Part shown: piece after piece, positions 60,712 through 61,314 of the stretch | Layout of the letters: each line of letters starts with the position of its first letter | Numbering within the stretch: the stretch's first letter is position 1 | DNA from: Escherichia coli 042 | Lineage (GTDB): Bacteria; Pseudomonadota; Gammaproteobacteria; Enterobacterales; Enterobacteriaceae | NCBI RefSeq assembly: GCF_000027125.1 | Contig: NC_017626.1 | Strand: one strand, 5' to 3' | Length of the DNA: 64,000 nucleotides | The notes under the pieces: model-generated | Told to the model about the DNA's origin: nothing | Database searches by the model: none | Seen by the model: only the letters and a program-made list of their open reading frames with translations | Translations under genes and position numbers: made by a program

Positions 60712-61314
60712 TTACCAGTCGATACCCGGCTGCGCCTGAATGCCGTTATCAAAAGCATGTTTGACGGGGCGGATTTCGCTGACCGTATCCGCTATTTTTA
60801 ATATCTGACTGTGGCAACCGCGTCCGGTGACAATGACACTTTGTTGTGCCGGGCGGTTTTGCAGAGAAGCGATCACTTCTTCGGTGTCCAGATAATGGTA
60901 AGCCAGCATATAGGTCAGCTCATCAAGCACCACTAAGTCGTAACGCTTGTCAGCCAGCATCCGTTTGCTTTCCGACCAGACCTCTTTCGCCGCGTCGATA
61001 TCCGCTTGCCGGTTCTGTGTCTCCCAGGTAAAACCGGTTCCCATAATATGAAACTCAACCCCCAGCGGCTGGAGAAGGTTGTATTCGCCGTTGTCCCATT
61101 GCCCCTTGATGTACTGCGCAACCCCCACCGTTTTGCCATGACCCACCGCGCGCGTCACAGTACCAAACGCGGCAGTGGATTTCCCTTTGCCGTTGCCGGT
61201 GAAAACAATCAAGATCCCTTTTTTCTCTATCGCCGCCGCGACGCGCGTATCGACCTGTTCCTTCAATTTCTGTTGGCGCTGCACATGCCGTTCAGTTGAA
61301 ATTCGCGCTTCCAT
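60712..61314 (-). CDS. ATP:cob(I)alamin adenosyltransferase paralog (BtuR/CobA/CobO family), 200 aa
   Basis: P-loop VFTGNGKGKSTAAFG and overall strong similarity to remembered E. coli BtuR, yet clearly a distinct copy. Confidence 0.85.
   Translation of the reverse strand: MEARISTERHVQRQQKLKEQVDTRVAAAIEKKGILIVFTGNGKGKSTAAFGTVTRAVGHGKTVGVAQYIKGQWDNGEYNLLQPLGVEFHIMGTGFTWETQNRQADIDAAKEVWSESKRMLADKRYDLVVLDELTYMLAYHYLDTEEVIASLQNRPAQQSVIVTGRGCHSQILKIADTVSEIRPVKHAFDNGIQAQPGIDW

Follow-up and report, generated by a model that had tools for sequence, protein, structure and literature searches.

The cobO gene in the accessory part of the window (the whole stretch of DNA analysed here, 64,000 nucleotides) raises the question of why an accessory island should carry an ATP:corrinoid adenosyltransferase of its own, and whether this copy is a working paralog of the housekeeping enzyme BtuR with a task of its own, or instead a passenger, a decaying duplicate or simply the only btuR of the strain. 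A first-pass annotation had read it as a distinct, locus-specific paralog that closes a transcription unit, and had argued from its presence that the same pathway should contain an adenosylcobalamin-dependent enzyme.

Identity, paralogy and maintenance of the island cobO gene

The product of the gene (Table 1) covers the whole of the Pfam family CobA_CobO_BtuR (PF02572; model positions 1–172 of 172, E 6e-64) and also matches the short N-terminal family Co_AT_N (PF12557). Its scores exceed the NCBIfam cutoffs, with 246.3 bits against a cutoff of 167.75 for the equivalog TIGR00708 (cobA), and 295 bits against 185 for PRK05986/NF004637. The Pfam and NCBIfam profiles matched by the protein are of the CobA family only, and no homology to PduO or EutT was found with them. 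In a BLASTP alignment with BtuR of the K-12 lineage (the yciK-btuR-rluB copy found in a K-12 derivative), 132 of 196 residues are identical (67%) with no gaps (E 4e-105), which bears out the earlier claim of a full-length alignment with BtuR in which the motifs are kept. CobA of Salmonella enterica (PDB 1g5r, 1g5t, 1g64, 4hut) belongs to the same Pfam and NCBIfam family, and the island protein is 68% identical to it (1g5r; phmmer E 2.5e-88), so that 67–68% identity over 196 gapless residues holds for both housekeeping enzymes. The RefSeq protein WP_000388207.1, from the near-identical complete genome of strain N3 (record L001, used here with its RefSeq annotation), is identical in sequence to the protein encoded in the window, and RefSeq gives its gene the name cobO. 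As judged by its sequence, island cobO is thus confirmed as an intact CobA-family adenosyltransferase gene, and the encoded protein is almost certainly an active adenosyltransferase.

When 5,426 complete E. coli genomes were searched with high sensitivity at the nucleotide level, a copy of island cobO with at least 95% nucleotide identity turned up in 1,122 records, about 21% of the total, whilst in 4,303 records the best match was only 60–80% identical. The matching places amounted to 6,546 in 5,425 records, and these counts indicate that nearly every island-positive genome also has the housekeeping copy, which is ~68% identical to the island copy. Among the matches listed, all six island-positive genomes (6/6) had two places each.

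The same division was seen in a scan of one genome per species (GTDB), in which the neighbours of 80 listed loci were typed by tblastn with the island and housekeeping flanking genes. Among these loci the identities were bimodal, with 13 loci, from 13 species of Citrobacter, Raoultella, Lelliottia, Buttiauxella and Klebsiella (K. michiganensis), at 81–86% protein identity to the E. coli island copy and all others at 70% or below. Every copy of the first group lies in the order mal-AtuA-DUF4387-transporter-fumD-cobO together with a LysR gene (13/13), usually beside sucD. Mal is encoded at all 13 loci and GlmE and/or GlmL at 12 of them, being present wherever the stored upstream flank extends that far. 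Every copy at or below 70% adjoins yciK, and usually rluB too, with Morganella as the single exception; the housekeeping position between yciK and rluB is therefore not the setting of the island gene. Ten species yielded both an island locus and a yciK-linked housekeeping locus. Neighbour-joining analysis of 84 sequences places the island copies in one clade (100/100 bootstrap), and the two paralogs of a single genome are 64–69% identical to each other, whereas island orthologs are 80–86% identical to the E. coli island copy and housekeeping orthologs 85–90% identical to K-12 BtuR. The proposal that this gene is a distinct paralog and not the sole btuR is upheld by the two-place counts in complete E. 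coli genomes, by the housekeeping copy at yciK-rluB and by the separate clade.

The island copies have also been kept in good order. Each of the 14 distinct island alleles starts with ATG and runs for exactly 200 codons without an internal stop. Their median pairwise dN/dS is 0.05, compared with 0.03 for the housekeeping genes found alongside them, synonymous sites being saturated between genera in these comparisons. Island cobO is under strong purifying selection and is selectively maintained.

The island and the expression unit of cobO

The chromosome in the window is E. coli-like, with sdhB and sucABCD followed by accessory DNA. Homology to K-12 stops directly after the sdhX small RNA, which lies at the sucD 3' end, and the sucD terminator (Table 1) and resumes about 370 bp upstream of cydA, and K-12 MG1655 has mngR-mngA-mngB at this site, ~5.9 kb in length (positions 2051–8085 of record L083). 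The homology breakpoints therefore identify the glutamate-mutase island (~14 kb) and the mannosylglycerate genes as alternative occupants of one site.

Table 1. Positions of cobO, its neighbours and other features within the 64,000-nt window.
Feature	Position	Strand	Evidence or remark
cobO (island copy)	60712–61314, including stop codon	-	ATG-to-stop ORF, 200 aa; CobA/CobO/BtuR-type ATP:corrinoid adenosyltransferase
fumD	61324–62976	-	Class I fumarate hydratase / mesaconase, 550 aa; PRK15392, 1282 bits against a cutoff of 1060; immediately upstream of cobO
fumD stop and spacer	61315–61326	-	Stop TAA 61326–61324; 9-nt spacer GGAAAATGA 61323–61315
Dicarboxylate/amino acid:cation symporter gene (GltP/DctA-like)	63084–64000, cut by window end	-	Partial NCBIfam DctA/GltP matches
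LysR-family regulator gene	59773–60678	+	GcvA-like NCBIfam matches below cutoffs; convergent with cobO
G+C-rich hairpin	60682–60708		11 bp, 9 G-C pairs; directly after cobO stop, between convergent cobO and LysR genes
Island portion within window	59211–64000		K-12 homology ends at 59210; left junction directly after sdhX
Left junction region with sdhX sRNA and sucD terminator	59108–59211		Hairpin 59183–59200
Promoter-like sites (two)	59644–59617; 59555–59526	-	Pointing away from the LysR gene
naRNA4 (CssrE, REP-derived)	52420–52490	-
naRNA4 (CssrE, REP-derived)	52515–52585	-
naRNA4 (CssrE, REP-derived)	56913–56983	+
ES036 (CssrF) small-RNA match	8305–8347	+
tRNA genes (seven)	4845–5546	-	Tight cluster

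The window ends inside the symporter gene, and for this reason the mutase genes lie outside it. The full island, seen in strain N3 (L001, 14112–28080, ~14 kb), extends about 9 kb beyond the end of the window and there includes the complete symporter gene (426 aa; 17985–19265, RefSeq). Its order is the LysR gene on the plus strand, followed on the minus strand by cobO, the class I fumarate hydratase gene, the symporter gene, a DUF4387 gene, an AtuA-family gene and the genes that encode methylaspartate ammonia-lyase (Mal), methylaspartate mutase subunit E (GlmE), GlmL and methylaspartate mutase subunit S (GlmS), beyond which are two hypothetical genes and then cydA. In this genome glmS, glmL and glmE are found 6–10 kb upstream of cobO and on the same strand, outside the 64-kb window. 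GlmS, GlmL, GlmE and Mal score far above their NCBIfam equivalog cutoffs, and the cobalamin-binding DxHxxG motif is present in GlmS as GADCHAVG. The adenosylcobalamin-dependent enzyme that the first-pass annotation had expected in this pathway is thus found just past the window end, as the glutamate (methylaspartate) mutase GlmS/GlmE accompanied by GlmL. There are no microcompartment genes in the island of strain N3, and no other corrinoid salvage genes were found in the E. coli-type island, either in N3 or at the loci of the species scan.

The remaining island genes within the window agree with the published cluster. The reverse primer published for FumD matches window positions 61324–61341, and the FumD enzyme has been characterised (Kronen and Berg, 2015; PLoS One 10:e0145098, PMC4682846). 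The LysR gene belongs to the island in every species examined (synteny of records L003–L015), and is labelled LTTR in Figure 5 of the same paper.

The spacer between fumD and cobO is exactly 9 nt, as had been stated for the gap to the hydratase gene, and the junction reads TAA-GGAAAATGA-ATG, in which a Shine-Dalgarno-like AAGGA overlaps the fumD stop codon. The 9-nt spacing and the TAAGGAG-type motif recur in all 13 of the other species (13/13), and Morganella has TGAGGAG. Such a junction fits a coupling of cobO translation to that of fumD on one transcript. At the other end of the gene, the hairpin that follows the stop codon has a fold of -28.1 kcal/mol (z -5.99; none of 200 shuffles was as good), which is far beyond chance, and its tail on the minus strand reads GTTTTAC (GUUUU in the RNA). 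At this position other species carry G+C-rich inverted repeats that differ from this one. The hairpin probably terminates the cobO transcript and may be bidirectional. Because this terminal hairpin lies between convergent genes, with the LysR gene next, the view that cobO is the last gene of its unit is well supported.

Upstream, the gaps are 107 nt between the transporter gene and fumD, and 160 nt between the DUF4387 and transporter genes. A consensus scan for sigma-70-like sites gave nothing convincing on the minus strand in the gaps upstream of the transporter gene and fumD, and fewer sites overall than in shuffled sequence. No cobalamin riboswitch or other Rfam element governing the island was detected in the window at gathering thresholds, nor at E ≤ 0.1 across the island of strain N3.

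Several minor observations were made in the island. In each of the 14 species (14/14; L001, 19426–21110, and L003–L015) the AtuA-family (DUF1446) and DUF4387 genes overlap by 4 nt and separate mal from the transporter gene, and no NCBIfam model matched either of them. As these bacteria are described as having no known fate for (S)-citramalate (PMC4682846), the pair is an obvious candidate for the missing (S)-citramalate step. The ~560 bp from the left junction to the start of the LysR gene (59211–59772) hold no ORF of at least 80 aa, and the two promoter-like sites of Table 1 fall in this stretch. In some E. coli, IS elements interrupt the region that matches window positions 59100–64000, namely IS1B and IS200C, and ISEc31 in CFIAFB20140388. 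The fumarate hydratase of CFIAFB20140388 is annotated as two pieces, and it is therefore probable that fumD has been split and the island inactivated in some lineages.

Conserved residues and changes specific to the island clade

Residues were compared in an alignment of 84 proteins, comprising 15 island copies, 68 housekeeping copies and the Morganella copy, in which 77 of 200 columns are invariant, those of the P-loop G-N-G-K-G-K-x-T among them. The P-loop of island CobO, G40-N-G-K-G-K-S-T47, corresponds to Salmonella residues 36–43 and to the MgATP-binding family motif GNGKGK(T/S)T, and its only change in all 15 island copies is the conservative replacement of Thr42 by Ser, a permitted residue of the Walker A motif. 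The equivalents of Salmonella R9, R51, E128, R161 and D195, which are important positions in the structural literature on CobA, are invariant across the 84 proteins (R55, E132, R165 and D199 in island numbering are found in 15/15 island copies), and the C-terminal motif RPVKHAFDxGxxAQxGID is kept in island CobO. F95 and W97 of island CobO (Salmonella F91 and W93) are likewise invariant (84/84). The P-loop and active-site residues, on which the claim of a functional BtuR-like paralog depended, are thus intact on careful alignment. As stated in the title of Moore et al. (2012; cited in PMC5282855), Phe91 and Trp93 enforce four-coordinate cob(II)alamin.

Ten columns separate the island clade from the housekeeping proteins, including T42S, P70D, Q85H, A88G and L121Y; beside Thr42 to Ser and the replacement of Salmonella Arg165, seven further replacements that distinguish the island copy from housekeeping CobA and BtuR are clade-fixed. 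Arg165 (Salmonella numbering) is R in all 68 housekeeping proteins and in Morganella; the 15 island copies all have S, A or T there. The Salmonella pair Arg165-Asp166, within CHRD, reads CH[S/A/T][Q/L/R] in the island clade, and the codon concerned in the window is S169 (60808–60810). All 15 island copies also begin with a four-residue N-terminal extension, ME[A/T]R, with the Arg invariant (window codons 1–4, 61303–61314), in contrast to the housekeeping sequences (68/68). The Arg9 equivalent is retained in the island copies. The replacement of Arg165 together with the N-terminal extension is a small detail, and one that has not been reported before.

Arg9 and Arg165 are reported, in work of Buan and Escalante-Semerena from 2005, to dock the flavodoxin FldA and to be dispensable for catalysis. 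Since Arg165 is lost in the island clade and is reported to be a flavodoxin-docking residue, island CobO may have switched its electron donor; alternatively, the changes may reflect docking onto GlmS or GlmL and direct hand-over of adenosylcobalamin to glutamate mutase, as the human PduO-type enzyme hands adenosylcobalamin directly to methylmalonyl-CoA mutase. Even taken jointly, these two possibilities are considered rather improbable. If true, such a switch of partner would make island CobO the first adenosyltransferase of the CobA type with a specialised part in a cofactor-delivery cycle for one particular client, and the loss of Arg165 offers a cheap, testable hypothesis on the partner specificity of CobA-type enzymes.

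A proposed role in glutamate mutase cofactor supply

The conserved linkage of cobO with the glm cluster points to a role in cofactor supply to the mutase, and island CobO is probably a dedicated adenosyltransferase that serves the glutamate mutase of the island (a probability of roughly 0.7–0.75). As would be expected of a pathway-dedicated adenosyltransferase, its gene shares a cluster and a strand with the genes of an adenosylcobalamin-dependent enzyme and its accessory factor, and coexists with a separate housekeeping adenosyltransferase, as seen from the E. coli place counts and the 10 species with both loci. E. coli does not synthesise the corrin ring de novo, and the substrate of island CobO must therefore be an imported corrinoid.

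The proposed sequence of events would begin with expression of cobO as the final cistron of the fumD transcript, which may perhaps span the whole glm-mal-transporter-fumD cluster. From what holds for the family, the modified P-loop would then bind MgATP and the Phe/Trp pair would keep cob(II)alamin four-coordinate, and one-electron reduction would be followed by attack of Co(I) on C5' of ATP to give adenosylcobalamin. Island CobO would in this way supply adenosylcobalamin from salvaged corrinoid and re-adenosylate the spent cofactor for GlmS/GlmE, working beside the accessory/reactivating protein GlmL. It would probably be partly redundant with housekeeping BtuR, and may matter most when the island is induced.

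Such an arrangement fits an established pattern of pathway-private adenosyltransferases, such as EutT of the eut operon and PduO of the pdu operon. Each of these is, like island CobO, a second adenosyltransferase encoded in the operon of an adenosylcobalamin-dependent enzyme and its reactivating factor, beside housekeeping CobA. In ethanolamine use EutT accompanies EutA, and in propanediol use PduO accompanies PduGH, both being parallels to island CobO with GlmL. EutT and PduO, however, are of unrelated protein families, whereas island CobO is a diverged duplicate of the CobA type, and the island, unlike eut and pdu, contains no microcompartment genes. The three families of ATP:corrinoid adenosyltransferases are named in PMC5282855, and the EutT/EutA cofactor cycle of ethanolamine use is described in PMC9426561. 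It should be added that housekeeping BtuR could in principle serve glutamate mutase, and that the clostridial glutamate-mutase clusters listed in PMC4682846 are without an adenosyltransferase, so that a dedicated enzyme is not a general requirement.

The main alternative is that island CobO is a redundant passenger, the ordinary adenosyltransferase of a donor that travelled with the transporter-fumarase-LysR module and is active but has no role specific to the mutase. The presence of BtuR in the same E. coli genomes is compatible with this, as is the cobO of Morganella morganii (L060), which branches as sister to the island clade (95/100 bootstrap). There, between positions 6573 and 17112, genes for a DAACS-family transporter and for a class I fumarase (69% identity with FumD), then cobO, a fragment resembling LoiP and a LysR gene are found immediately next to cobT-cobC-cobS-cobQ, and glm and mal genes are absent within 10 kb. 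Among the 80 loci listed there is no yciK-linked copy from Morganella. As in the island, Morganella cobO follows a transporter gene and a class I fumarase gene after a 9-nt GGAG spacer and has a LysR gene next, and its product shares with the island clade S at Thr42, H at Q85, I at V86 and Y at L121. Unlike the island proteins, it has 196 aa, lacks the N-terminal extension and keeps Arg165. The Morganella arrangement suggests a transporter-fumarase-cobO-LysR module that predates its association with glm and mal. A useless duplicate would nevertheless be expected to decay or vanish in at least some species, whereas the 14 species that have a housekeeping copy all keep the island copy intact, with a dN/dS of 0.05 and an unchanged 9-nt junction with fumD, and the substitutions fixed in the clade also speak against a passenger. 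Long-term purifying selection despite an intact btuR thus argues against simple redundancy, and a mere passenger seems unlikely.

It is less likely still that island CobO acts as a general booster of corrinoid salvage when the island is on, adenosylating cobinamide or other incomplete corrinoids for nucleotide-loop assembly by CobU/CobS/CobT and not in the service of the mutase. It is true that CobA-type enzymes can use incomplete corrinoids and that the steps catalysed by CobU and CobS depend on adenosylated ones (PMC5282855, PMC9426561); the Morganella relative also adjoins nucleotide-loop genes. The E. coli-type island, however, is without other salvage genes, BtuR already does this job, and the constant partners of island cobO are glm, mal and fumD, not cob genes. 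Finally, that island cobO is the only btuR of the strain, which might be entertained given that the yciK-rluB region lies outside the window, or a decaying pseudogene, is rejected as having next to no likelihood, since two matching places are present in almost all island-positive complete genomes of E. coli, with the housekeeping copy always at yciK-rluB, and the island gene is a full-length ORF with all key residues and a dN/dS that reflects purifying selection.

The reading of island CobO as a dedicated partner of glutamate mutase concerns a cluster that has been described before. Kronen and Berg (2015) described it in E. coli O157:H7 and other Enterobacteriaceae, and their Figure 5 shows a gene labelled "CobA" with GltP, LTTR, GlmS, GlmE, MutL/GlmL, Mal and DUF1446 (PMC4682846). 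This "CobA" is the same gene as island cobO, as seen from the identical cluster order and the match of the FumD primer, although the paper gives the label only. The cluster was reported in 26.5% of E. coli genomes, compared with the prevalence of about 21% of complete genomes found here. An O157:H7 strain did not grow anaerobically on glutamate, with or without hydroxo-, cyano- or adenosylcobalamin; no conditions were found under which the cluster was expressed, and methylaspartate ammonia-lyase activity was not detected (PMC4682846). Expression of this lyase is reported for, among others, Citrobacter and Morganella (Kato and Asano, as cited in PMC4682846). In a full-text literature search, no paper besides this one was found that links an adenosyltransferase to this cluster. 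Since RefSeq names cobO and this paper draws "CobA" within the cluster, the gene is not new as regards its annotation and the description of its cluster. What is added here is the clean separation of the paralog clades, the sister arrangement in Morganella, the conserved 9-nt junction, and the clade-specific loss of Arg165 with the N-terminal extension. The importance of this is modest, in that about one in five complete E. coli genomes, O157:H7 among them, carry between sucD and cydA an accessory island that brings its own cofactor-activation step for a B12-dependent glutamate mutase.

Outside the island, the window also holds a tight cluster of tRNA genes, a small-RNA match and three REP-derived naRNA4 elements (Table 1). 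The naRNA4 elements lie in the sdhB-sucA and sucB-sucC spacers, and because the sucB-sucC spacer is 274 nt in the window and 93 nt in strain N3, the number of these repeat elements varies between strains.
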